DNA of 64,000 bases from contig CP070837.1 in NCBI GenBank assembly GCA_020341815.1, forward strand, positions 780,954-844,953. Reading direction: 5' to 3'. This document shows, piece after piece, positions 6,845 through 19,586 of the stretch (the stretch's first letter is position 1; every line of letters begins with the position of its first letter). A model generated the notes under the pieces. That model saw nothing but the letters and a program-made list of their open reading frames with translations. It searched no databases and was not told the origin of the DNA. The translations under genes were made by a program, and so were the position numbers. Origin of the DNA: Candidatus Omnitrophota bacterium (GTDB taxonomy: Bacteria > Omnitrophota > Gorgyraeia > JAFGHF01).

Positions 6845-7483
6845 TTATTTTTTCATTTCTTCTCTCTTTACCAGAAAATAAGAGAGCGTCTCCAGTTCTC
6901 TGGAGAGATCCACATCTTTTACTTTGACATTATCCGGCACAATCAGTGTCGCCGGGGCAAAGTTCAGAATACATTCCACTCCTGCCTTAATCAACTTATC
7001 CGCCACTCCTTGAGCCTCTTTCGCCGGCACGGCTATAATGCCGATAGATATCTTTTTTGCCGGGATTGCTCTGGAAAGCTCATCTATGGACTGAACAACA
7101 ATATCTTTTACCTGCTTGCCTATTTTCCTGGCATCCACATCAAAGGCCGCTACTATATTCAGTCCGCGCTCCTTAAGTCCCGGATAAGCCAGAAGCGCCG
7201 AACCCAGATGCCCCGCCCCTACAACCGCAACATTCCAGGTACTGTCTTTTCCCAGTATCTTCTCCAAAGCGGCTTTTAACTCATCGGTATTGTAGCCGGC
7301 GCCGCTTACACCGAATTGACCAAAGTAGCCCAGGTCCTTCCTTACCTGCGCATCGCTTAAGTTGGTCCTCTCGCCTAATTCCGCAGAAGATATGGTGTGA
7401 ATATTCATTTTGGTTAATTCACTAATTTCTCTCAAGTAAATAAAAAGACGCGAGATGACCCCTTCAGGAACCTTTTTGTTCAT
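6845..7483 (-). CDS. rex: Redox-sensing transcriptional repressor Rex
   Basis: Track ORF 6845..7615; likely start is the internal ATG at 7483 (MNKKVPEGVISRLFIYLREI...). Winged-helix N-terminus plus Rossmann motif VAVVGAGHLG, typical of Rex. Stop is 1 nt before the next gene. Confidence 0.8.
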   Translation of the reverse strand: MNKKVPEGVISRLFIYLREISELTKMNIHTISSAELGERTNLSDAQVRKDLGYFGQFGVSGAGYNTDELKAALEKILGKDSTWNVAVVGAGHLGSALLAYPGLKERGLNIVAAFDVDARKIGKQVKDIVVQSIDELSRAIPAKKISIGIIAVPAKEAQGVADKLIKAGVECILNFAPATLIVPDNVKVKDVDLSRELETLSYFLVKREEMKK

Positions 7484-7496
7484 CTGCCGCCTCTGT

Positions 7497-7514
7497 TTGT
7501 AACAATATTCACAG
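7497..7514. promoter_or_regulatory. Rex-box-like palindrome A (TTGTAACAATATTCACAG)
   Basis: Matches the Rex operator consensus TTGTGAA-N4-TTCACAA at 5/7 and 6/7 half-site positions; lies 14-31 nt upstream of the rex ATG. Confidence 0.45.
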
Positions 7515-7517
7515 ACT

Positions 7518-7535
7518 TTGTGCCACTTTTCACAA
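7518..7535. promoter_or_regulatory. Rex-box-like palindrome B (TTGTGCCACTTTTCACAA)
   Basis: Left half 5/7, right half 7/7 to TTGTGAA-N4-TTCACAA; directly adjacent to box A and just downstream of a candidate -10. Confidence 0.5.
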
Positions 7536-7564
7536 AGAATAACAAATAAAAAAGGCTTTGTCAA
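7536..7564 (-). promoter_or_regulatory. Candidate sigma70-type promoter for the rex-hydrogenase operon
   Basis: Minus strand reads TTGACA-N17-TATTCT (-35 perfect, -10 at 4/6); the Rex boxes sit immediately downstream. Confidence 0.3.
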
Positions 7565-7628
7565 GGAAAATCTGTAAGGATTTTCCGCAGACCTCGCCGC
7601 TTTTTGGCGGGGCAAAATATAATTTCTA

Positions 7629-8660
7629 TCAGCAAATCCTGCCGCCGCCTATCACAACATCCCCCTGATAAAATACTGCCGATTGGCCCGGCGCAGGCGC
7701 CCATTGGGGATGTGCAAATCTTACCTTCGCCTTTTCCTTTCCCTGCGGAATAATGCTGGCGGGTGCTGCCAGATGCAGGTATCTTATCTTAACCTCTGCC
7801 TCAAGATGCGCCTCTAACCTACCTCCATATATAAAACTTACATTATCGACAATTAATTCATCTTTATAAAGTTCTTGCTTGAGCCCTACCACGATACTGT
7901 TATTTTCCCTATCGATAGAACTTACATATAAAGGCTCTTTATGGGAGAGGCCTATCCCCTTGCGCTGGCCGACAGTATAAAAAATAATCCCCTGATGTTC
8001 ACCGATAACCTCACCACCCTTCCTTAAGATAGGCCCGGGCCTGTAGAGCTCTTCGGGAATATATTCCTTAAGAAACTCTCCATAGCGATTATTAGGGATA
8101 AAGCATATTTCCTGGGATTCCGTGCTTTCCGCTGCCGGCAAATCTTTCTTGCGGGCAATCTCTCTTACCTGTTCCTTGGTTAAATTGCCCAGGGGCATTA
8201 AAGTCCTCTCCAGCTCTTCCTCATTCATTAAATACAGAAAATAAGACTGGTCCTTTCGGGAATCAATCCCCCTTTTAAGAAGGTGCCTTTGTCCATTATG
8301 TTCTATGCAGGTATAATGGCCGGTAGCTATATAATCTGCGCCTAAGGCCCCGGCCTTTCTAATTAACGTATCGAACTTTATATATTTATTACATCTGACA
8401 CAGGGATTGGGCGTGTGTCCTCTTTTATATTCTTCGCAGAAGTCGCTAATCACCCTCTCCTTAAATATATCCTCAAGATTCAGGACATAATGGGGTATTC
8501 CCAATCTGCGACCTTGAGCTCTTGCCTCTTCCAGTCTGGAATCTTTAGTCATCTGCATAGTCAGACCGATGACCTCAAAGCCCTCATCCTTAAGCAGACT
8601 GGCCGCAACCGATGAGTCTACGCCCCCGCTCATTGCTATAACAACTTTTTTTCGCTTCAC
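7629..8660 (-). CDS. mnmA: tRNA 2-thiouridine(34) synthase MnmA
   Basis: Track ORF starts at TTG 8708; GTG at 8660 preceded by GAGAGGT gives VKRKKVVIAMSGGVDSS, the PP-loop SGGxDS motif typical of the MnmA N-terminus. Confidence 0.85.
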   Translation of the reverse strand: MKRKKVVIAMSGGVDSSVAASLLKDEGFEVIGLTMQMTKDSRLEEARAQGRRLGIPHYVLNLEDIFKERVISDFCEEYKRGHTPNPCVRCNKYIKFDTLIRKAGALGADYIATGHYTCIEHNGQRHLLKRGIDSRKDQSYFLYLMNEEELERTLMPLGNLTKEQVREIARKKDLPAAESTESQEICFIPNNRYGEFLKEYIPEELYRPGPILRKGGEVIGEHQGIIFYTVGQRKGIGLSHKEPLYVSSIDRENNSIVVGLKQELYKDELIVDNVSFIYGGRLEAHLEAEVKIRYLHLAAPASIIPQGKEKAKVRFAHPQWAPAPGQSAVFYQGDVVIGGGRIC

Positions 8661-8735
8661 TTTAAAACCTCTCAATATAAAAAGCGCCCTTGCCCACTTC
8701 CCTTCCAATTCAAAAAGGCATCAGGCGCCTGCTTT

Positions 8736-9674
8736 TTACTCCTGGCTCAAATAACGCTCGCCGGTGTCCGGTAAAATTACTACGATAAGCTTACCTTTGT
8801 TTTCTTTTCTCTTGGCTACTTTAATTGCCGCAAAAACAGCAGCTCCTGAGGAAATCCCCGCTAATATACCCTCTTTGAGGGCCAACTGCCGCATGGCCCT
8901 CAAGGCATCCTCATCGCTGACCTGAATTACCTCATCAATCAGCTCTTTTTTTAAAACCTGGGGAATAAATCCAGCGCCGATACCCTGAATCTTATGCTTA
9001 CCCGGTTTTTTTCCCGCCTGCTCGCCATATTTTTGGCGAGAAAGAACTGCAGATTCTTTAGGCTCAACTGCGATAGCGCGAAATCCCGGCTTTCTTTTTT
9101 TGATAGCTTCGGCCACTCCGGTAATAGTTCCACCTGTGCCCACACCGCTAACCAAAATATCTACCTTTCCCTCCGTATCACGCCAAATCTCCTGGGCTGT
9201 AGTCTGGCTATGAGCTTTAGGGTTAGCCGGATTTTCAAACTGCTGCGGCATAAAGGAATTAGGAGTCTTTTTTATGAGCCCTTCCGCCTTTTTGATTGCC
9301 CCGGGCATCCCTGCTTTGCCGGGTGTCAAGATAACTTTGGCACCCAAAAGAGATAAAATTTTTCTACGCTCAACGGACGTCTTATCCGGCATAGTTAAAA
9401 TTAAGTTATAACCTCTTACTGCCGAGACAAAGGCCAGACCAATGCCTGTATTGCCGCTGGTCGGCTCAATAATGGTAGTGCTTTTTTTAATCAATCCCTT
9501 TTTCTCGGCATCCTCAATCATACTCAAGCCGATTCTATCCTTTACGCTGGATAAAGGATTGAAGAACTCAAGTTTTCCTGCCAGATGGGCCTTTAATCCG
9601 GGGCTTATCCTATTTAGGCTCACTAAAGGGGTATTTCCTATCAGAGCGGTTATATCTTTTGCTATCTTTGCCAT
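8736..9674 (-). CDS. cysK: Cysteine synthase A (O-acetylserine sulfhydrylase)
   Basis: 312 aa; [18 protein letters not shown]..., PLP-lysine region SVKDR and GNTG glycine loop characteristic of CysK/CysM. Confidence 0.85.
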
Positions 9675-9693
9675 TAACTTTCTCTCCTTGCAA

Positions 9694-10596
9694 CTATCTT
9701 TTTCGACTTAAATATCTGAATGCGCCCAATGCTGCCTTGGAGCCTTCTCCTGCGGCGATGATAATCTGTTTCTCTACAACATCGGTAACGTCACCGGCGG
9801 CAAAAACCCCCGGGATATTGGTTTCATTGCGGCAATTCACTTTAATTTCGCCGTTTTCGTTTATATCTATGCCCCTGGCAAAGGCGGAATTGGGTTTTAG
9901 GCCCACTTCTACAAAGATTCCCTCAACAGCTAAGGATTCCTCTTTGTCTTTCTTTTCTATCTTAATACCTTTGACCATCTTATCGCCAAAGATAGAGGTT
10001 ATGCGCGTATTATTAAGGATAGATACCTTTTTACTAGAGTTGACTTTCTCCTGCATGATGGCGTCGCCCGTAAGATTATCGGCAATATTAATAATATAGA
10101 CGCGCCTGGCTATCTTTACTAACTGTAAAGCCGCATCCAGCGCAGAATTCCCCCCACCGACAACAGCAACGTCTTTGCCGGTGAATAAAGGGCCATCGCA
10201 GGTAGCACAATAAGTAAGCCCCCTGTTTTTAAACTCTTTCTCACCCGGAACGCCAAGCTCTTTTGAGGTTTTTCCGGAAGCAATTATCAGTGTTGCGGTC
10301 TCATATTTGCCCTTATCCGTCTTAACCAGAATAGAGTTTTCTTTTCTCTCAAGCGCCAGGGCCTGTTCGTTTTCTTTCAAGTCGATATTGTATTTCTTCA
10401 TGTGTTCTTCGAACTTTGCGGTCAACTCCGGACCGCTAATAAATTGATAACCGGTGTAATTCTCAATATTTCCGCTCCAGGCGGTTTGTCCGCCGATATC
10501 TTTGGTGATGACCAGAAAGTTCATCCTCTTGCGGGCGGCATATACGCTGGCGGTTATGCCTGCGGGGCCCGCCCCGATAATGATTAAATCATACAT
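9694..10596 (-). CDS. trxB: Thioredoxin-disulfide reductase-like flavoprotein
   Basis: 300 aa; FAD-binding GAGPAG, redox-active CATCDG and NAD(P)-binding GGGNSA motifs. Confidence 0.8.
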
Positions 10597-10600
10597 AATT

Positions 10601-10837
10601 TTACAATCCTAACAGCTGGCTTATTCTGTCTTTATCAAAGCCCGTTACGATTTCCCCGTTGATGTCCAGTACCGGAACACCCATCTGTCCGGATTTATCT
10701 ATCATCTCTTGCGCGGCTTCCTGATTTTCCGAGACGTCAACGTCTTCGAAAGGTATATTATTTTCCTTTAAGAATTGCTTGGCCCTGATGCAGTATGGAC
10801 AGGTAGGGATGCTGTATATCTTTACCTTATTATCCAT
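10601..10837 (-). CDS. Glutaredoxin-like protein (NrdH/Grx family)
   Basis: 78 aa with CPYC active site and thioredoxin-fold length. Confidence 0.75.
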   Translation of the reverse strand: MDNKVKIYSIPTCPYCIRAKQFLKENNIPFEDVDVSENQEAAQEMIDKSGQMGVPVLDINGEIVTGFDKDRISQLLGL

Positions 10838-10852
10838 TTTGGCCTCTCTTTT

Positions 10853-11296
10853 TTACAAATCCGTCTCTTTAATCCAGGCGCCATGCAGATTGCACAGCTC
10901 TATTACACTTAAACGCCCTTTATTCGCCTTAAGATGAAGTGCGCCGGCCGGATTGAGCTTATCAGGGGTAAGCGCAATTCTGGAGATAAACTCCTTGTCT
11001 ATGTAGAAATCGATATGCAGGATATAGTGCTCCGGCTGCATCGGATGCTGAATCTCACCCATCTTTACGTGCACGTCTTCGCAGCCCTCGGGTATCAGGC
11101 CGCATTTTTTTACCAGATTGATTACGGGGATGTGCTTCTTTTCCAAGTCGCTGAGATTATTTTTATCTTTGGGCAGCTTTATGGCATCTTCTTTTTCCTC
11201 AAAGGCGCTTTGAGGTGCCCCGCATACGGGGCATTTATCGGGTGCAGTGCCATTGATTGAGATAAACTTGCAAACCTTGCAAACCAGACCTTTCAT
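10853..11296 (-). CDS. Superoxide reductase (desulfoferrodoxin/neelaredoxin type) with N-terminal Cys4 domain
   Basis: 147 aa; N-terminal CKVC...CPVC pair; SOR centre motifs EKKHIPV and CNLHGAW. Confidence 0.7.
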   Translation of the reverse strand: MKGLVCKVCKFISINGTAPDKCPVCGAPQSAFEEKEDAIKLPKDKNNLSDLEKKHIPVINLVKKCGLIPEGCEDVHVKMGEIQHPMQPEHYILHIDFYIDKEFISRIALTPDKLNPAGALHLKANKGRLSVIELCNLHGAWIKETDL

Positions 11297-11313
11297 GGTT
11301 CACCCCCCTTTTT

Positions 11314-11889
11314 TTAATAATTTTCACAGAGGAGCTCGTAATAGCTCTGCGGATGGGCGCAGGCAGGACACTCCTCGGGTGCTTCTTTTCCTTCATGCAC
11401 ATATCCGCAATTGCGGCATTTCCATTTAACCACTGCATCTTTTTTGAACACAGTGCCTTCTTTTACATTTTTAAGTAATTTCCGATATCTTTTCTCATGC
11501 TGCTCTTCCACTTCGGCTATTTCCTTAAACTGCTTGGCTACCTCTTCAAAACCTTCACTCCGGGCGACCTCTTCGGCCTCTTTATAAAGCTTGGACCACT
11601 CCAGGTGCTCTCCGGCGGCTGCGGCTTGCAAGTTCTGCGGCGTATCCCCGATTATGCCTGCCGGGTAAGAAGCGGTAATCTCTACATCGCCCCCTTCCAA
11701 GAGTTTGAAAAACCTCTTGGCGTGCTCTTTCTCATTGTCGGCGGTCTCTAAGAAAATTGCCGCTATCTGCTCATAACCCGCCTTTTTTGCTACCGAAGCA
11801 AAATATGTATAACGGTTCCTGGCCTGGGACTCCCCGGCAAAAGAGGCAAGTAGGTGCTTTTCCGTCTTTGTTCCTTTTACGCTTTTCAT
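11314..11889 (-). CDS. rbr: Rubrerythrin
   Basis: 191 aa; diiron four-helix bundle E..EXXH motifs plus C-terminal rubredoxin-like CRNCGY...CPAC. Confidence 0.85.
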   Translation of the reverse strand: MKSVKGTKTEKHLLASFAGESQARNRYTYFASVAKKAGYEQIAAIFLETADNEKEHAKRFFKLLEGGDVEITASYPAGIIGDTPQNLQAAAAGEHLEWSKLYKEAEEVARSEGFEEVAKQFKEIAEVEEQHEKRYRKLLKNVKEGTVFKKDAVVKWKCRNCGYVHEGKEAPEECPACAHPQSYYELLCENY

Positions 11890-11902
11890 CCTTTTCCCTC
11901 CT

Positions 11903-12364
11903 TTATTTCAGGTGTGCCGGTGTAAGGTCGACTATTTTTTCCGTATCCATCACAATCATATATTCGGGCGTAGGCAAAAGTGCCTCCGGATGATGGCGGT
12001 GCCCTTTTTCCCCGGCAACATTCTTAAGAACCCTTTTTGTAATCCTCTGGGCAATCTTTTTCTCCCAGTCCGTAATAATATGGGAACCGAGCTTATCTTT
12101 TTTTATGAGCTTTGCCTTACCCTTCAGGGAAAAACCTCTAAACTTATGTTCATCGACAGCCGTAACTGCTATATTGGGATTACTTCTTAAGTTTTCGAAA
12201 GTCTGGGCATTATAAAGGTCAAGGAGATAAATTTGGCCGTTTTTGTTTATCTTCACTATGCCTTTACAGGAATTGTGAGGCGAGCCTGCTTTATCAATGG
12301 TCGAGACGATAACAAAACTCTGCTTATGAAAAAACTGGATTAAATCATCGCTAAGCGCTTTCAC
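11903..12364 (-). CDS. Pyridoxamine 5'-phosphate oxidase-like FMN-binding protein
   Basis: 153 aa, GTG start 2 nt after the desulforedoxin stop; split-barrel FMN-binding family by length and sequence character. Function unknown. Confidence 0.55.
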   Translation of the reverse strand: MKALSDDLIQFFHKQSFVIVSTIDKAGSPHNSCKGIVKINKNGQIYLLDLYNAQTFENLRSNPNIAVTAVDEHKFRGFSLKGKAKLIKKDKLGSHIITDWEKKIAQRITKRVLKNVAGEKGHRHHPEALLPTPEYMIVMDTEKIVDLTPAHLK

Positions 12365-12366
12365 GG

Positions 12367-12492
12367 TCAGCCTGAGACCTTTTCCATAGGCTGATTGCAG
12401 CAGACCAGCTCCCCTCCGCCCACCTTTGTTACGGTAACTTCATTGCCGCAGACATTGCACTTGTAATGCTCACCAACCTTTTCTACCGCCAT
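12367..12492 (-). CDS. Desulforedoxin-like small Cys4 metalloprotein (41 aa)
   Basis: Below the ORF-track cut-off. Hand translation MAVEKVGEHYKCNVCGNEVTVTKVGGGELVCCNQPMEKVSG* carries the desulforedoxin CxxCG ... CC cysteine pattern; strong SD (GAGGGAGG) upstream; stop 2 nt before the next gene. Confidence 0.55.
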   Translation of the reverse strand: MAVEKVGEHYKCNVCGNEVTVTKVGGGELVCCNQPMEKVSG

Positions 12493-12504
12493 ATACGCCT
12501 CCCT

Positions 12505-12921
12505 CTATTTAAAAAGATCTATGTATATCGCAAAAAGCAAAGCCAGGGCTGAAAGCGCAAATATAAACATATAATTTATTCTTTCTTTTCCGGAACTCAG
12601 CGCGCAAAGAATTGCGCCCAGCAAATCGTAATCCTCTTGGCTTAACTTTTCTTTAAGATTTATCTTATCCAAAAGCCTTCTCTGAGATATGGCGTTGTGT
12701 CTTGCCTGATTTATTCTAAACTTATACACAAAAAATAAGAAAAATCCACCCACCCCTATATACCAGGCAACCTTGGCATAAAAGGGGCTGGCGTGCATCA
12801 GAATTGTCACCACCCGAATTGCCGCCGTTGCTATAAGGCCGATAATAAAAAATAGCCAGGAAGCAAAAGAATCCCTGCAATTTTTATATTCGCTGCAGGT
12901 TATGCATTTATTTTTTTCCAT
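12505..12921 (-). CDS. Hypothetical membrane protein with N-terminal CxxC...C motif
   Basis: 138 aa; predicted transmembrane segments; no recognised family. Confidence 0.45.
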   Translation of the reverse strand: MEKNKCITCSEYKNCRDSFASWLFFIIGLIATAAIRVVTILMHASPFYAKVAWYIGVGGFFLFFVYKFRINQARHNAISQRRLLDKINLKEKLSQEDYDLLGAILCALSSGKERINYMFIFALSALALLFAIYIDLFK

Positions 12922-12929
12922 GAGACCTG

Positions 12930-13580
12930 TTAAACTATGATTTCTTTCAGCTGGGATATATTATCTATGATATAATCCGGTCTTGCTTTTAGAATATCCT
13001 CTTTTTTGCCTATTCCGTAGGTAACCGCGCAAGTTGCTATACCGGCTCTTTTGCCGGCTAATATATCTACATCCATATCCCCTACAATTATAGTTTTTTC
13101 TTTAGGCATTTTGAGCTTTTCCATGGTTTGGTCCAAAGAACAGGAAGAAGGCTTCATGCATCCGGAGTTATCTCCTCCTAAGACATCTTCAAAATAATCA
13201 TATACGCCGAGCGTCTCCAGGGCGAGCCTGGCAAATTTATACTTTTTATTGGTCACGATGGACTTTCTCTTATCCTTAAAATATTCCAATACTTCTTTTA
13301 CGCCCGGATAAAGACGGGATTTATCTACGGAATGAAGTGCGTAATATTGTTCGAACCGGAATACGGCCTCATTAAGAAGCGAATCCTTCTTTTCCCCTAA
13401 AGACTTCCCGATTAAGTCCTCTAAGCCCGTACCGATATAAGAAGTTATCTCGGATAAACTTTTCTCCTTAAGGCCAAACTGCCTTAAAGTAAAATTGACG
13501 GCACCGGCTATATCCTCTCTTGAATCAACTAAAGTGCCATCTAAATCAAATATAATCAAGCCTATAGGCTTTGCCTGCAT
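12930..13580 (-). CDS. HAD-superfamily hydrolase (phosphoglycolate phosphatase-like)
   Basis: 216 aa; HAD motif I IIFDLDGTLVDS and motif IV GDMDVD. Confidence 0.75.
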   Translation of the reverse strand: MQAKPIGLIIFDLDGTLVDSREDIAGAVNFTLRQFGLKEKSLSEITSYIGTGLEDLIGKSLGEKKDSLLNEAVFRFEQYYALHSVDKSRLYPGVKEVLEYFKDKRKSIVTNKKYKFARLALETLGVYDYFEDVLGGDNSGCMKPSSCSLDQTMEKLKMPKEKTIIVGDMDVDILAGKRAGIATCAVTYGIGKKEDILKARPDYIIDNISQLKEIIV

Positions 13581-13586
13581 CGCCTT

Positions 13587-14321
13587 TTATCCCGCAATTT
13601 TAAGCAACATCATAAAAACCAGCCCTAAGATAAAAGTGAAAAAGGCGATATTTGCCCTTTTCGCGTCCTTCTGCTTATGCAGCTCGGGGATCAAGTCCGA
13701 GGCGGCAATATAGATAAAGCCCCCGGCGGTAAATGAAATCAAAAATAAAGAAAAGTTTTGCGTGAGGCCTGAGAGAATATATCCTATAACAGCGCCTAAT
13801 ACAGCCGTAAGGGCGCAGAGAAAGTTAAAAAATAGCGCCCGGGTTTTAGTAAAGCCGCCATAAACAAGGATTCCGAAATCCCCCATCTCCTGGGGAATCT
13901 CATGAAAGATAACCGCCAGCGTAGTTATGATGCCCAATTTTATATCGGTCATAAAACTGGCGGCGATAATCAGGCCATCGGTAAAATTATGTACCCCATC
14001 ACCGATTAAGTTCAGATATGTAAAGGTGTGCACATCACACACTCCTTCGTGACAATGCCTCCAGTAAAGATATCTTTCCATCAGGAAAAAGGTGGTAAAA
14101 CCGATTAAGGTATAGAAAAATACAAGGTTGCATGCACATCGGGTGAGAGCCTCAGGCAGAAGGTGCAGGAAGGCTCCACCAATTAATCCACCGGCGGCAA
14201 AACCGACCAATAAAACCAGTATGTTATCAAATGTCTTTGTCTTTACTCCTAAAGTAAAAACACCGATTAACGAAATAAGGCTGACCACTATTGTAGCCGA
14301 TAAAATCCAAATCAGCGTCAT
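13587..14321 (-). CDS. ZIP-family divalent metal transporter (ZupT-like)
   Basis: 244 aa polytopic membrane protein with HNFTDG and HEIPQEMGDF motifs typical of ZIP transporters. Confidence 0.75.
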   Translation of the reverse strand: MTLIWILSATIVVSLISLIGVFTLGVKTKTFDNILVLLVGFAAGGLIGGAFLHLLPEALTRCACNLVFFYTLIGFTTFFLMERYLYWRHCHEGVCDVHTFTYLNLIGDGVHNFTDGLIIAASFMTDIKLGIITTLAVIFHEIPQEMGDFGILVYGGFTKTRALFFNFLCALTAVLGAVIGYILSGLTQNFSLFLISFTAGGFIYIAASDLIPELHKQKDAKRANIAFFTFILGLVFMMLLKIAG

Positions 14322-15518
14322 TTAAAACACCTCTTTCTCACAGGCGGTTATGGCCTCATCCACCTCTTTTTGAAGTGTATCGGGTAAGCCCATTATTGAT
14401 GTATCCAGGAACCCTCTGACAATAGCTGCCTGGGCTTCGCCCTGACTTAAGCCCCGGGACATAAGATATTCTATTTCATCCTTGGCAATCTTACCCACTG
14501 CTGCTTCGTGCGAAAGGTCTACGCCTTCCACAGTCCCCTCAAGCTCCGGAATAGCATGGATGCGTCCTTTTTCCGTAACCATCAGCCCGCGGCATTCCAG
14601 ATGCGCCTTTATCCCGGCTACCTCTCCTTTTAAATGGCCCCTGGCAATAATATCTCCTCCGGCTGAGACTGCCCGGGCTACAACCTCGGCCCTTGAGCCC
14701 TCCGCCTTTAATATTACTCTTGAACCCACATCCAAAACTCCGCCGGGATGAGCAAAAAGTATAGAATTATACCGTCCCACGGCACCCCGCCCAACAAGTT
14801 CGGCCCTGGGATACATCTGCAGGTTCTTTACCGGCTTAAGGCAGATATAATTTGATAGAAATGTGCCTCCCTCTTCTACTAAGGCTGCGGTCCGCGGGCG
14901 CACACATACATCCTCTGCCCAGTTATGAATCATGGTAAAGGTGAGCTTCGCCCCGCGCTTTACATAAAACTCGGAAATCCCGATATGCAGACCTCTTTTT
15001 ACGTCGCTGGCCGTGGCGCATCCGGTAATAATCTGCAGGTCCGAACCTTCCTCGGCAATTATTACATTATGGACATTTTGAATTATGTTATTGTCATTTA
15101 TAAAAAGGCAGGCCTGCAAGGGATAAGTCGCCTTGACGCCGGGAAGAGCCCTTAAGAAATAACCATGATGGGGTTGATTATGCGCCTGCCTGGTAAACTC
15201 ATCGGCATCAAGGGCAACCACCTTCCAGAAATAATTATCCACCCACTCATATTTTTTAATGGCCTCGGTGGTGCTCATTACCTCTACTCCCGGATAAAGG
15301 CTCTCAGAATGCACTACGCTGTGGTCCATCTGAAGATAAGTCCCTGAGCGCCCTTTCTGCGAAGGGTCGACTCCGGCAGAAAGCATATTCTTTTTCTGGT
15401 CAGCGCTGACTTTCGCTAAGTCTTCCAGATAACCCAGAGACTTGGCCTTGGACTTATAGGAGGGGATGTCTATTTTTCCGGCCTGTGAGAGCCCTTTCTT
15501 GGTTTTTCTCTTTGGCAT
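14322..15518 (-). CDS. sufB: Fe-S cluster assembly protein, SufB/SufD family
   Basis: Track ORF 14322..15530; SufB-like sequence character (EAIKKYEWVDNYFWK). Start uncertain: the ORF overlaps the sufC 3' end by about 50 nt. Confidence 0.65.
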   Translation of the reverse strand: MPKRKTKKGLSQAGKIDIPSYKSKAKSLGYLEDLAKVSADQKKNMLSAGVDPSQKGRSGTYLQMDHSVVHSESLYPGVEVMSTTEAIKKYEWVDNYFWKVVALDADEFTRQAHNQPHHGYFLRALPGVKATYPLQACLFINDNNIIQNVHNVIIAEEGSDLQIITGCATASDVKRGLHIGISEFYVKRGAKLTFTMIHNWAEDVCVRPRTAALVEEGGTFLSNYICLKPVKNLQMYPRAELVGRGAVGRYNSILFAHPGGVLDVGSRVILKAEGSRAEVVARAVSAGGDIIARGHLKGEVAGIKAHLECRGLMVTEKGRIHAIPELEGTVEGVDLSHEAAVGKIAKDEIEYLMSRGLSQGEAQAAIVRGFLDTSIMGLPDTLQKEVDEAITACEKEVF

Positions 15519-16216
15519 GTTATGCACCATTCATAACCGTGTTTCTTTACGGTTTTCAATATCTCCTTGGGCTCGCCCATACAATGAAGCCTGCCGCCCA
15601 CTAAGATACAACCTTCATCTGCCTTTACATAATCCAATATATATCCCGTATGCGTGATAATCAGGGCGCTATTATCCTTATCTCTTTTTAGTATCCGGTT
15701 CATAATCTCACCCACCAGGGCAATGTTTTCCAAATCAACGCCTGATTCGGGCTCATCAAAAAGACTTAAGCGCGCCCCACCCGCCAAAAGCTGCAAGAGT
15801 TCCGAGCGTTTTATCTCCCCTCCGGAAAACCCTAAGTTTATATCCCTCTCCAGAAACTCTCTTAAGTTAAGCTCACCGGCTGCCCTGTCAATATCAAAAT
15901 CTCCGCCCTTTATCAAATCCACCATCTGCCTTACCTTTACCCCTCTTATGGTAGGAGGCCTCTGAAACATCATCCCTATCCCTAAGCGGGCGCGCTCATC
16001 GATGGAGAGGTCGTTTATTTTCCTGCCTTTGAATATAATACTTCCCTGGGTAATTTCATAATTAGAAAAGCCGATAATGGTCATGAGCAGAGAGGTTTTT
16101 CCTGAGCCGTTAGGACCGAGCAGGGCAATAGTCTGGCCCTTCTTGACCCGCAGATTTATGTCGGTCAATACCTCTTTGCCCGATACTTTTACGGTTAAGT
16201 TCTTTATCTTTAACAT
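15470..16216 (-). CDS. sufC: Fe-S cluster assembly ATPase SufC
   Basis: 248 aa; Walker A GPNGSGKTS, ABC signature FSGGE, Walker B SLFDEPESGVD. Confidence 0.85.
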   Translation of the reverse strand: MLKIKNLTVKVSGKEVLTDINLRVKKGQTIALLGPNGSGKTSLLMTIIGFSNYEITQGSIIFKGRKINDLSIDERARLGIGMMFQRPPTIRGVKVRQMVDLIKGGDFDIDRAAGELNLREFLERDINLGFSGGEIKRSELLQLLAGGARLSLFDEPESGVDLENIALVGEIMNRILKRDKDNSALIITHTGYILDYVKADEGCILVGGRLHCMGEPKEILKTVKKHGYEWCITCQREKPRKGSHRPEK

Positions 16217-16217
16217 A

Positions 16218-17384
16218 TTAAAATATCGTATTTGCTAATATACCCATGGCTACTACCTGAGGCACAGTAACTACAGGAAGCCAGATGGCTACCCTTCGGC
16301 CAACATTATGCCAGAGCAGGCCTATCTCTGTATAGTCGGTAACAACCCCGGCCATTAAAAATACGAAGGCATTTCCTAAAGCACGCGTCTGCCTGTATAT
16401 CTCAAAGGCAAGAGGTGCTGTGCCTTCGGAACAAACCTCAAGGATAGTGGCAACAACTAAGGTTATGGTTAAGCCGAGAGCGTTGGGCCCCATATAATTT
16501 TGAAATATGTTCTGGGGTATGTAGGCCGCAGAAAGTGAGGCCAGGCCCATGCCTATCAGTATCCACCATAATACCATATTAGCCAGGGAAATTGAACCGG
16601 AAAATACACCTTTTATATCCTGCCTTATTCCTATAGAAGTAAGCTTATATGAGCTAAATCTTGCCTTTAAGTCCTTAAATACAGAAAAACCTTCCTCTAT
16701 TTCTCTTATATTTTTATTTTTTTCTATCAGGTCTTTTGATTCCAGGAATTGAAAAATGAAACCGGTGATAATTGCGATAATCAGGGCAGAGATTATAATA
16801 AATAAGGCCTTTGCTCCGAAGAAACCGATTAACATTATAGTCAAAGTGAAGTTTGCCCAGGGTGAGGCCAGGAGAAAAGCCACTACAGCCGGGTTTGAGG
16901 CGCCTTTTTTGTGCAATTCAATGGAAAGCGCCAGAATCCCGTGGCTGCAGGCGCTCATAAAGAAACCCAATATCACCGAATAGAATATCGTGCTTCTTTT
17001 AGGCTTGGCCAAAAAGTAAGAGATATATTCCCGGGGTATAAAATGGTCAATAATTCCACCCAGGATAAACCCCAGTAAAATAGCCCACCAGATGCGCTCG
17101 AAATACATCAATAATGATTTCCTGAAGGGCTCAAGGATAGGCACAATATAGGAAAGAATGCAAAGTGCGCTCAAGACAGATGCCACAATAGTCGTCTTAT
17201 TTTTATACCATTTTACCTTTGGCTGCACAAGGCAGGTGGCTACTTCCCTGTCACTGATTTTATTCTGCCGGGCAAACTTCTTAAGGCAATTTTCACTGCA
17301 AAAATAATGGGTTTGGCCGTCTTTTGTCAGCTTTAGGCTTTGCGCTTCACTTACATCCATTCCGCAAACAGGGTCTTTTGCCAT
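16218..17384 (-). CDS. Predicted permease with N-terminal TRASH/YHS metal-binding domain
   Basis: 388 aa; N-terminal DPVCGMDV...HYFCSENC followed by a polytopic permease domain. Confidence 0.6.
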   Translation of the reverse strand: MAKDPVCGMDVSEAQSLKLTKDGQTHYFCSENCLKKFARQNKISDREVATCLVQPKVKWYKNKTTIVASVLSALCILSYIVPILEPFRKSLLMYFERIWWAILLGFILGGIIDHFIPREYISYFLAKPKRSTIFYSVILGFFMSACSHGILALSIELHKKGASNPAVVAFLLASPWANFTLTIMLIGFFGAKALFIIISALIIAIITGFIFQFLESKDLIEKNKNIREIEEGFSVFKDLKARFSSYKLTSIGIRQDIKGVFSGSISLANMVLWWILIGMGLASLSAAYIPQNIFQNYMGPNALGLTITLVVATILEVCSEGTAPLAFEIYRQTRALGNAFVFLMAGVVTDYTEIGLLWHNVGRRVAIWLPVVTVPQVVAMGILANTIF

Positions 17385-17385
17385 T

Positions 17386-18129
17386 TTAATACCCCGTAAA
17401 GTTCTCTGCTTTAATTTTACCTTCGGGAAGACCTAATTTATTCTTCAGGATGCCAGTTAAGCTGCTCACCATGCCCGGCGGGCCGCAGATATAAAATACT
17501 CTTTCTTTATAATCGCCCACCTCTTCTTTTATTACTTTATCATCAATAAGCCCGACTCTTCCGGGCCATTTTTTTCTATCGATATCCTCAGAGGTCAACC
17601 CAGCCCCTGCGCGCAGGGGCTGGGTCAAGGTATAGACGATGCGAATATTTTTATTACTCCTGCTTATTCCGTCTAAATCCTCTCTAAATATAATATCTTC
17701 TTCCTTGTTGTTACCGTAAAGCAAAATTATATCTGAAGGTATGCGCTTATCTGCAACAAATTTACAAATGCTTCTTATCGGGGTTATTCCTATGCCTCCG
17801 GAAAGAAAGGCAATTTTTTCGTATTCTCCCGTAAATGTGAAAGAGCCGTAAGGCATCTTAAGCTGCGCCCAGTCACCAACCTTTAAGCCTTCAAGAGCCT
17901 TTGAAAACTCACTTTCGGTTATCCTCTTGGTAAATTCCACATAGCCCTTCTCGGTAGGAGAATTGGAAAAGGAAAAATGTTTTGTCTGTTCTTTCCCTCC
18001 TATCTTTATACTTACAAAAAAGAACTGCCCAGGCTTAAAATCTACATCCTTATTCAGCTTAAAGCGAAAACTCTTTACGTTAGGCGTTCTCTGGATTATA
18101 TCCCGCACCTCTGTCTCAAACTGAATCAA
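17386..18129 (-). CDS. FAD/NAD(P)-binding oxidoreductase (ferredoxin-NADP reductase-like)
   Basis: 247 aa; FNR-like barrel and nucleotide-binding motifs (GGIGITP, ICGPPGM); no Fe-S motif. Confidence 0.65.
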   Translation of the reverse strand: MIQFETEVRDIIQRTPNVKSFRFKLNKDVDFKPGQFFFVSIKIGGKEQTKHFSFSNSPTEKGYVEFTKRITESEFSKALEGLKVGDWAQLKMPYGSFTFTGEYEKIAFLSGGIGITPIRSICKFVADKRIPSDIILLYGNNKEEDIIFREDLDGISRSNKNIRIVYTLTQPLRAGAGLTSEDIDRKKWPGRVGLIDDKVIKEEVGDYKERVFYICGPPGMVSSLTGILKNKLGLPEGKIKAENFTGY

Positions 18130-18144
18130 ATTAAACCACTCCCT

Positions 18145-18417
18145 TTATCCAAAGCTATAGTGTTTCTTCACCGCCTCCTGAATATCCCAGAGGCAACTTA
18201 GGCCCTTGGGGAAAACCACAAAATCGCCTGCGCCGAAATTGACGGTCTTTGCGTCTTTGGTGGTAACAGTAACCTTGCCTTTTAAAAGATAGCAGCTTTC
18301 CTTATCATCATAATGCCAGTTGAATCTGGATACCTCTTTCTCCCATATCGGCCAGCTGGATACATTCAAGTCCCTCAATTTATCCTGAGTAGGTTTCTCG
18401 ATCTTTATCTCGGACAT
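18145..18417 (-). CDS. Cupin-domain protein
   Basis: 90 aa small beta-barrel protein; family assignment tentative. Confidence 0.5.
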   Translation of the reverse strand: MSEIKIEKPTQDKLRDLNVSSWPIWEKEVSRFNWHYDDKESCYLLKGKVTVTTKDAKTVNFGAGDFVVFPKGLSCLWDIQEAVKKHYSFG

Positions 18418-18434
18418 CTTCTTATGCCTCCTTT

Positions 18435-19586
18435 TTATCCTTCGCTTTCCATCTGCGATAAGAATACTTCTTTAAACAGGCCTTGCTTATGCGCCTCCCA
18501 AAATGCCTCTATTACTTTAGGGTCGAATTTTGTACCTGAGCCGGCCTTAAGTTCGGAAATTGCCTTGTGATAAGCCAGCGCCTTCCTGTAGGGCCTGTCG
18601 GTCATCATAGCATCTAAAGAATCCGCCACCCTGATTATTTTGGCCAGGATATTTATATCTTTTTCCTTCTTTCCGTAAGGATAACCGGTTCCGTCGCAAT
18701 TCTCATGGTGCGAAATGACTCCTTCCACTACTATATCCCCCAGCCATTTTTTTAAAGGTTTAATTATATTTGCGGACTCCAGGGGGTGGCGCTTCATCTG
18801 CTTCCATTCCTCAGCATTCAGCTTGTCCTCTTTCTTAAGCACGCTGGCGGAAAGTGCGACCTTGCCTATGTCATGAAATTCGGCAGCATAATATAAAGAT
18901 ATCTCGCCATACGGGATTTTCTCCAGTTCCCCGCTAAGCTGCGAGCCGATAATCACAGAAATCCGGGCAACCCTGTCAGAATGCCCTTTGGTATAAACAT
19001 CCTTATCTTCCAAGGCCTTATTTATCTTGCGTATAGAACTGACAAAAAGCTCTACTTCTTTCTTCACGGCGTTAAAATCATTGATCAGCTTTGCGCAATG
19101 CTGCGCCACCAGAGAAAAGGAGGCTATTTCTTCATTAGCATAGTCTTGCTCTGAGAGTTTTTTTCCTAAAATAAATACGGTTAGCAACTTCTCTTTAGCA
19201 AAACCCGGCAGGCAAACTTCGCCCTCCATCCTCTCTAATTTATTCTTAACTAAAGACAAAAAGCCCTGCCTTTCCTTTGTTAAGGCAACTGCAATATTCT
19301 CATCCACCTCCCTGGCCAAAAAAGGCTTTTTTATATCCAAGATGTGCTTTATCAAGGGGTCTGTCAGGCTAAAACTTGCCTCTTTTATGCTTGAGGCGCT
19401 GTCTTTTCTTGCTATATTCCTCTTGAGAATATATTTACGTTTTACTTCATCCAGGACGAATATCCTGATAAGCTCCATGGCGGAAAAGCTCTTGGCCTCA
19501 TTTTCCAAAAAGGCAAAAAGTTCCTTAGGAGTCTCTAATTTTGATATCTTCTCAATATCTTTTTTTAGCATCCCCGGCTCTTTCAT
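18435..19586 (-). CDS. HD-GYP domain phosphodiesterase with N-terminal sensor region
   Basis: 383 aa; HD motif HDIGK and downstream GYP-type motif (DGTGYP). Confidence 0.75.
   Translation of the reverse strand: MKEPGMLKKDIEKISKLETPKELFAFLENEAKSFSAMELIRIFVLDEVKRKYILKRNIARKDSASSIKEASFSLTDPLIKHILDIKKPFLAREVDENIAVALTKERQGFLSLVKNKLERMEGEVCLPGFAKEKLLTVFILGKKLSEQDYANEEIASFSLVAQHCAKLINDFNAVKKEVELFVSSIRKINKALEDKDVYTKGHSDRVARISVIIGSQLSGELEKIPYGEISLYYAAEFHDIGKVALSASVLKKEDKLNAEEWKQMKRHPLESANIIKPLKKWLGDIVVEGVISHHENCDGTGYPYGKKEKDINILAKIIRVADSLDAMMTDRPYRKALAYHKAISELKAGSGTKFDPKVIEAFWEAHKQGLFKEVFLSQMESEG

Follow-up and report, generated by a model that had tools for sequence, protein, structure and literature searches.

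Background

Does a reading frame of only 41 codons, situated in an oxidative-stress gene cluster of a Candidatus Omnitrophota bacterium, correspond to a genuine metalloprotein gene, and which redox partners could its product serve? The original prediction, made from the sequence alone, proposed that it encodes a desulforedoxin (Dx), a protein whose physiological role has, to our knowledge, never been established, even for the desulforedoxin of D. gigas. Enzymes detoxifying reactive oxygen species (ROS) such as rubrerythrin (Rbr) and superoxide reductase (SOR) are normally supplied with electrons by rubredoxin and NAD(P)H:rubredoxin oxidoreductase, NROR (PMC11980386). In addition, the desulforubrerythrin of C. 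jejuni is a single chain that contains, besides the two centres of rubrerythrin (diiron and rubredoxin), one that resembles desulforedoxin (PMC7482061; PMC6006211). We analysed the gene and its surroundings in a 64-kb stretch of DNA (hereafter, the window), together with 80 related loci taken from species-representative genomes, for which the window sequence served as the reference.

A complete small gene encoding a desulforedoxin

The original prediction had placed the 41-codon ORF at positions 12367-12492, together with its peptide and without naming a strand. Both the position and the peptide proved exact, the ORF being carried by the minus strand, as is the whole surrounding cluster, with an ATG at 12492..12490, a TGA at 12369..12367 and the translation MAVEKVGEHYKCNVCGNEVTVTKVGGGELVCCNQPMEKVSG (41 aa). 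Its two features are:

12367..12492, minus strand: desulforedoxin (Dx) coding sequence, 41 aa, ATG...TGA, Fe ligands C12, C15, C31 and C32
12504..12498, minus strand: Shine-Dalgarno sequence AGGGAGG of Dx, separated from the ATG by the 5-nt spacer CGTAT

The strong Shine-Dalgarno sequence that had been announced is thus present 5 nt before the ATG, where it abuts the TAG stop (12507..12505) of the 138-aa ORF located upstream. An in-frame stop is found 5 codons 5' of the ATG and, on the other side, only the dinucleotide CC separates the TGA from the GTG (12364) of a 153-aa ORF of the PNPOx family. With a start, a stop and a ribosome-binding site of its own, and a length falling within ~36-45 aa, the ORF has the attributes of a stand-alone small protein. 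The upstream 138-aa membrane protein and Dx share the same frame in the window, TAG and 4 codons apart, and a read-through fusion of the two was considered; it was ruled out by the gaps at eight orthologous loci (10, 13, 14, 17, 17, 48, 54 and 118 nt), which are mostly not multiples of three, against 12 nt in the window. A read-through fusion of Dx with the PNPOx-family protein was also ruled out, these two ORFs lying in different frames.

The cysteine pattern that had been recognised in the peptide (CxxCG and a vicinal CC) is formed by C12-x2-C15-G16 and C31-C32, with a CxxC-x15-CC spacing that matches exactly the motif C(xx)C(x)15CC reported for centre I (PMC11980386; PMC3116461). The profile-HMM search suggested as a check placed the peptide above the curated thresholds of both models of the family, namely Pfam PF06397 (Desulfoferrodoxin N-terminal domain; 61.6 bits vs a cut-off of 23, E 5.5e-17, profile positions 2-35 of 36) and NCBIfam TIGR00319 (desulfoferrodoxin FeS4 iron-binding domain; 47.3 vs a cut-off of 36.05). 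Sequence searches against the PDB retrieved the desulforedoxin of D. gigas (1CFW/1DXG, 36 aa; E 6.6e-7) as well as desulfoferrodoxins (E 5.7e-7 to 2.1e-6). BLASTP gave 53% identity over 32 aa with a D. gigas sequence that agrees with the coordinates of the PDB match. An alignment of 28 close homologues showed that the four cysteines, the GGG turn, N17, E18, L29 and M36 are invariant. Furthermore, the AlphaFold2 monomer model (pLDDT 87.8) had 1DXG as its best Foldseek match in the PDB (TM 0.82/0.92, rmsd 0.8 Å over 36 columns); the next five matches were desulfoferrodoxin chains, and all those below had E > 0.8.

Related families fit the peptide poorly. It displays a single CxxC followed by a vicinal CC where rubredoxins have two CxxC(G) knuckles ~28-30 residues apart, and the rubredoxin 6NW1 matched it at E 0.31 only in the PDB sequence search. 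The full desulfoferrodoxin model TIGR00320 failed on it (40.4 vs a cut-off of 146.9); the chain ends at 41 aa, with no fused Fe(His)4Cys SOR domain of the kind found in desulfoferrodoxins (2Fe-SORs), and the next gene encodes the PNPOx-family protein in another frame. Desulforubrerythrins carry three domains in a single polypeptide; here, Dx and rubrerythrin each have an ORF of their own, in the window as at all 80 of the related loci. Finally, a weak similarity to the zinc-ribbon family PF21344 remained sub-threshold (18.6 bits vs a cut-off of 27).

The 41-aa protein is a desulforedoxin, an assignment about which we have hardly any doubt. It is predicted to be a ~4.4-kDa protein that would bind one iron via its four cysteines and function as a one-electron carrier. 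The desulforedoxin of D. gigas is a homodimer in crystal and NMR structures, and by analogy the Dx of the window may also dimerise. It shares with this D. gigas (Megalodesulfovibrio) protein (1DXG, 1CFW, 1DCD, 1DHG, 2LK5/6) its stand-alone nature at ~36-41 aa, the CxxC-x15-CC spacing and the predicted fold, but differs by five extra N-terminal and C-terminal residues, by the phylum of origin and by its location inside a rubrerythrin/SOR operon. The resemblance extends to centre I of desulfoferrodoxins (1DFX, 1VZG, 2JI1), with which it has in common PF06397, the cysteine motif and 53-54% identity in structural alignment; unlike this centre, however, it is unfused to a SOR domain, and the SOR of its operon bears a rubredoxin-like domain instead.

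Purifying selection on a widespread reading frame

The original prediction had made conservation of the small ORF in syntenic regions one of its checks, and the reading frame is kept across the 80 related loci, with an ATG start at all of them, a length of 39-45 aa throughout and a Shine-Dalgarno core at 73. Relative to the window, substitutions at these loci amounted to 381, 261 and 1420 at codon positions 1, 2 and 3, respectively, giving pooled values of 0.79 for pS, 0.12 for pN and 0.15 for pN/pS. The Dx ORF is clearly under purifying selection. Relatives were found in at least 571 species genomes (571 of the 600 candidates among those listed were confirmed), and when 1.84 billion cluster representatives (50% identity clusters) were searched with a profile, 1268 clusters were recovered at E ≤ 1e-3, including 191 at E ≤ 1e-10.

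Such a short ORF could in principle have arisen by chance, or be the non-functional 5' remnant of a broken desulfoferrodoxin gene, as this domain is more familiar as the N-terminal part of a longer protein. The conserved ATG, length and Shine-Dalgarno sequence, the codon-position bias and the pN/pS of 0.15 nevertheless exclude both an accidental ORF and a degenerating remnant. The conserved stop and the breadth of the distribution in genomes and clusters argue in the same direction, and the gene found downstream, for PNPOx or rubrerythrin, is read in a different frame from a start of its own and encodes no SOR domain.

An operon combining redox enzymes and metal-related genes

Between 18129 and 7629, the minus strand carries one tightly packed cluster; its genes lie -61 to 27 nt apart, and the first of them is preceded by a gap of 305 nt. 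Fifteen genes follow one another in this order: an FNR/cytochrome-b5-reductase-like flavoprotein, a YHS-ArsP permease, SufC, SufBD, a ZIP transporter, a HAD hydrolase, the 138-aa membrane protein, Dx, the PNPOx-family protein, rubrerythrin, SOR, a glutaredoxin-like protein (CPYC), a thioredoxin-reductase-like protein (CATC), CysK and MnmA. The features considered below are:

17386..18129, minus strand: FNR/cytochrome-b5-reductase-like FAD/NAD(P)H oxidoreductase, first gene of the cluster (PF00970 and PF00175; 2EIX at E 1.1e-20)
16218..17384, minus strand: ArsP-type permease with a YHS (metal-binding) domain fused at its N-terminus, flanked by the FNR-like gene and sufC
15470..16216, minus strand: SufC, longest ORF
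14322..15530, minus strand: SufBD, longest ORF
12505..12921, minus strand: predicted membrane protein of 138 aa whose N-terminus bears C-x2-C-x5-C, its stop 12 nt 5' of the Dx ATG ("hypothetical protein JSV30_04265", UCB56429.1)
11903..12364, minus strand: PNPOx-family (FMN-binding split-barrel) protein, 153 aa, GTG start (PF01243, 51.5 bits; UCB56427.1)
11314..11889, minus strand: rubrerythrin, diiron four-helix bundle with a C-terminal rubredoxin-like FeS4 domain (NF045767, 305.8 bits; D. vulgaris Rbr 1B71 at E 1.2e-76; two ExxH and two CxxC motifs)
10853..11296, minus strand: superoxide reductase (SOR) whose N-terminal FeS4 domain is rubredoxin-like, not Dx-like (PF01880, 67.6 bits; PF21349, 38.4 bits)
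10601..10837, minus strand: glutaredoxin-like protein with a CPYC motif (PF00462, 77.1 bits)
9694..10596, minus strand: thioredoxin-reductase/AhpF-like flavoprotein (profile matches and a CATC motif)

The oxidative-stress context that had been proposed for the small ORF is borne out by these rubrerythrin, SOR, glutaredoxin and thioredoxin-reductase-like neighbours, and the FMN-binding protein expected downstream is indeed there, 2 nt away. This gap makes a translational coupling from Dx to the PNPOx gene plausible; the spacing between the two genes is not conserved in orthologous loci, where it ranges from 0 to 57 nt. The PNPOx-family protein is a candidate flavoprotein partner of Dx, and the FNR-like protein encoded at the head of the cluster a candidate NAD(P)H:Dx reductase.

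The SOR displays the full set of active-site ligands, E-K-(K-)H...H-x5-H...C-x2-H, and an FeS4 motif of the form CKVC...CPVC. Its rubredoxin-like PF21349 domain occupies the place where a desulforedoxin domain is usual, an under-annotated architecture. In GenBank this protein is only "hypothetical protein JSV30_04245" (UCB56425.1), since its TIGR00332 score of 54.1 falls below the cut-off of 61.9. Elsewhere in the cluster, the longest SufC and SufBD ORFs share 61 nt (15470..15530, minus strand), and the true start of SufBD is probably a start codon further downstream.

Promoter and terminator consensus scans of positions 7000..19500 were uninformative, with 26 promoter sites vs 20.9±4.6 in shuffles and 12 terminator sites vs 14.4±4.2, neither above expectation; the operon limits are consequently drawn from gene spacing only. 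A scan of positions 9000..19000 against Rfam matched no RNA family, leaving no competing RNA explanation. Within the 64-kb window we found no ORF for a stand-alone rubredoxin, and the remaining genome may hold one. The 138-aa membrane protein upstream of Dx matched no Pfam or NCBIfam family.

Gene neighbourhoods across related loci

Rubrerythrin is the most conspicuous neighbour of Dx, as its gene lies directly downstream (start within 120 nt) at 24-25 loci, or 25 of the 76 with enough sequence, and anywhere in the locus at 40 of 80, bearing in mind that the 80 loci come mostly from a single phylum and that such adjacency counts are not phylogenetically independent. The PNPOx gene directly follows Dx at 7 of 80 loci and is then mostly followed by rubrerythrin, and a glutaredoxin gene does so at 4 loci. 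Other immediate neighbours include a ferritin-like protein, an FMN-reductase-like protein, MsrB/A, peroxiredoxin and a 1Fe-SOR. In total, 47 of the 80 loci have at least one homologue of the oxidative-stress genes of the window, and ~40% have none inside the retrieved stretch.

The FNR-like gene, present at 22/80 loci, is located directly upstream of Dx at four of them, at a distance of 15-19 nt (L018, L022, L030) or 132 nt (L047). Homologues of the 138-aa membrane protein occur at 19 of the 80 loci and adjoin Dx at 10, making this protein a conserved companion of the Dx/Rbr cluster. Omnitrophota and Nitrospirota/Thermodesulfovibrionia both have the Dx-rubrerythrin pair, which therefore spans at least two phyla; in one Thermodesulfovibrionia genome (L031), it forms an isolated bicistronic unit, preceded by divergent genes and followed by a gap of 720 nt. 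No fusion of Dx with rubrerythrin was detected across the 80 loci, and a search with a chimeric Dx and Rbr query returned as its best 120 matches only ~191-aa rubrerythrins lacking PF06397, a list swamped by close relatives of Rbr.

Proposed role in electron transfer

The best overall explanation, which we regard as very probable, is that of a genuine stand-alone desulforedoxin gene whose product would be the electron shuttle of an oxygen-stress operon, a redox role that we infer along with its donor and acceptor. Dx is proposed as the one-electron shuttle of this operon because rubrerythrin and SOR normally use rubredoxin, because the window lacks a stand-alone rubredoxin, and because desulforubrerythrin provides a precedent for fusion. 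Considered apart from the partners involved, a function as electron carrier in ROS defence appears likely. Dx would be co-transcribed with the genes of two flavoproteins (FNR-like NAD(P)H and PNPOx-type), of rubrerythrin and SOR, and of the glutaredoxin/thioredoxin-reductase pair. An FNR-like and/or PNPOx-like NAD(P)H-dependent flavoprotein would reduce Dx, which would then hand electrons to rubrerythrin, at its rubredoxin-like FeS4 domain, so that H2O2 is reduced to H2O, and could possibly also reduce SOR. Rubrerythrin as the main acceptor comes close to an even call, falling slightly short of it.

Dx would thus take the place here that rubredoxin has in the NROR-Rd-Rbr/SOR chains of Clostridium, Desulfovibrio and Pyrococcus. 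Like this rubredoxin, it is predicted to be a small Fe(Cys)4 one-electron carrier, for which the same role is proposed, and it is encoded next to ROS-detoxifying enzymes. It differs from rubredoxin by its fold and cysteine spacing, with a vicinal CC instead of a second CPxCG knuckle. The comparison with the C. jejuni desulforubrerythrin relies on the same three metal modules, here contributed by the Dx and rubrerythrin genes of one operon, 0.5 kb apart in the window; these are, however, separate polypeptides, with the PNPOx gene in between in the window, and the likeness is one of gene neighbourhood only. We tentatively suggest, with somewhat less assurance than for the acceptor itself, that the Dx-Rbr pair of Omnitrophota and Nitrospirota/Thermodesulfovibrionia is a "split desulforubrerythrin", in which Dx, possibly reduced by the FNR-like or PNPOx-like protein, would be a dedicated reductant of rubrerythrin replacing rubredoxin. 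If true, this would represent the first defined physiological role for a stand-alone desulforedoxin.

The electrons could also be destined mainly for SOR, Dx forming with it a "split desulfoferrodoxin" that would feed the Fe(His)4Cys site, as thought for centre I in 2Fe-SORs. The homology of Dx to the N-terminal domain of desulfoferrodoxins speaks for this reading, as do the SOR gene situated 1.1 kb downstream in the same operon, the SOR homologues present at 18 of the 80 Dx loci and, at locus L064, a 1Fe-SOR gene ending 8 nt 5' of Dx. It is nevertheless rather unlikely, because the SOR of the window already possesses an N-terminal rubredoxin-like FeS4 domain of its own and because direct adjacency is overwhelmingly to rubrerythrin, far oftener (the 25/76 above) than to SOR. 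Isolated Dx-Rbr pairs devoid of SOR in the retrieved flanks (6 kb on each side for L031, shorter for some loci) also weigh against it. The metal-related genes of the operon (ZIP transporter, YHS-ArsP permease, SufC/SufBD), together with the sub-threshold zinc-ribbon similarity, evoke a different function, in which Dx would be a non-redox Zn/Fe ribbon that serves a metal-homeostasis operon by delivering metal as a chaperone, by buffering iron or by regulation. We consider this highly improbable, since such genes are not conserved neighbours of Dx: ZIP and SufBD each occur at 2/80 loci and SufC at 4/80, against 40/80 for rubrerythrin, and the characterised members of PF06397 are all Fe(Cys)4 redox centres. 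Homologues of the YHS-ArsP permease were found at 11 of the 80 Dx loci.

Annotation status and significance

The original prediction had presented the gene as untracked and of a kind often missed by automated annotation. It does fall below the 60-aa ORF filter, but it had not been missed: an exact-sequence look-up identified the identical protein as GenBank UCB56428.1 of Candidatus Omnitrophota bacterium, encoded on a contig of 1,553,238 bp and under the correct name, and gene callers had also called it on two further (Logan) contigs. Its GenBank neighbours are UCB56427.1 (PNPOx family protein), UCB56426.1 (rubrerythrin family protein) and the two hypothetical proteins UCB56425.1 and UCB56429.1 (locus tags JSV30_04245 and JSV30_04265). 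Dozens of near-identical proteins in NCBI and JGI bear the same name. The gene is therefore already known and correctly annotated, an ordinary member of a family whose motif and structure have been known for decades. The main value of the case is one of quality control, as it illustrates that a 60-aa ORF cut-off conceals genuine metalloprotein genes. In addition, the recurrent adjacency of Dx and rubrerythrin in uncultivated anaerobes offers a small lead, namely a testable partner for stand-alone desulforedoxin.

Architectural variants of the family

Among the best 150 of the 1268 cluster representatives retrieved by the profile search, nearly all were shorter than ~120 aa. A few of the retrieved proteins depart from the single-module plan. 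One of 136 aa (P0244) contains three FeS4 modules in the order Dx-like, rubredoxin-like, Dx-like, and several of 83-100 aa contain two Dx stretches, indicating that tandem Dx proteins exist; the 11 "stretches" of a 1353-aa representative (P0200) were dismissed as a low-complexity artefact of CC repeats. In another representative (P0263), an SPFH-domain protein, the Dx is located at the C-terminus; neither this protein nor P0200 has a bearing on the gene of the window. At locus L047, a second Dx-like ORF of 52 aa with extra cysteines, RYTCRVCGLVVTVDNVCGCVEACDIICCGEQM, is located 38 nt 3' of the Dx gene and has the look of a paralogue whose CxxC and CC ligands are separated by an insertion.
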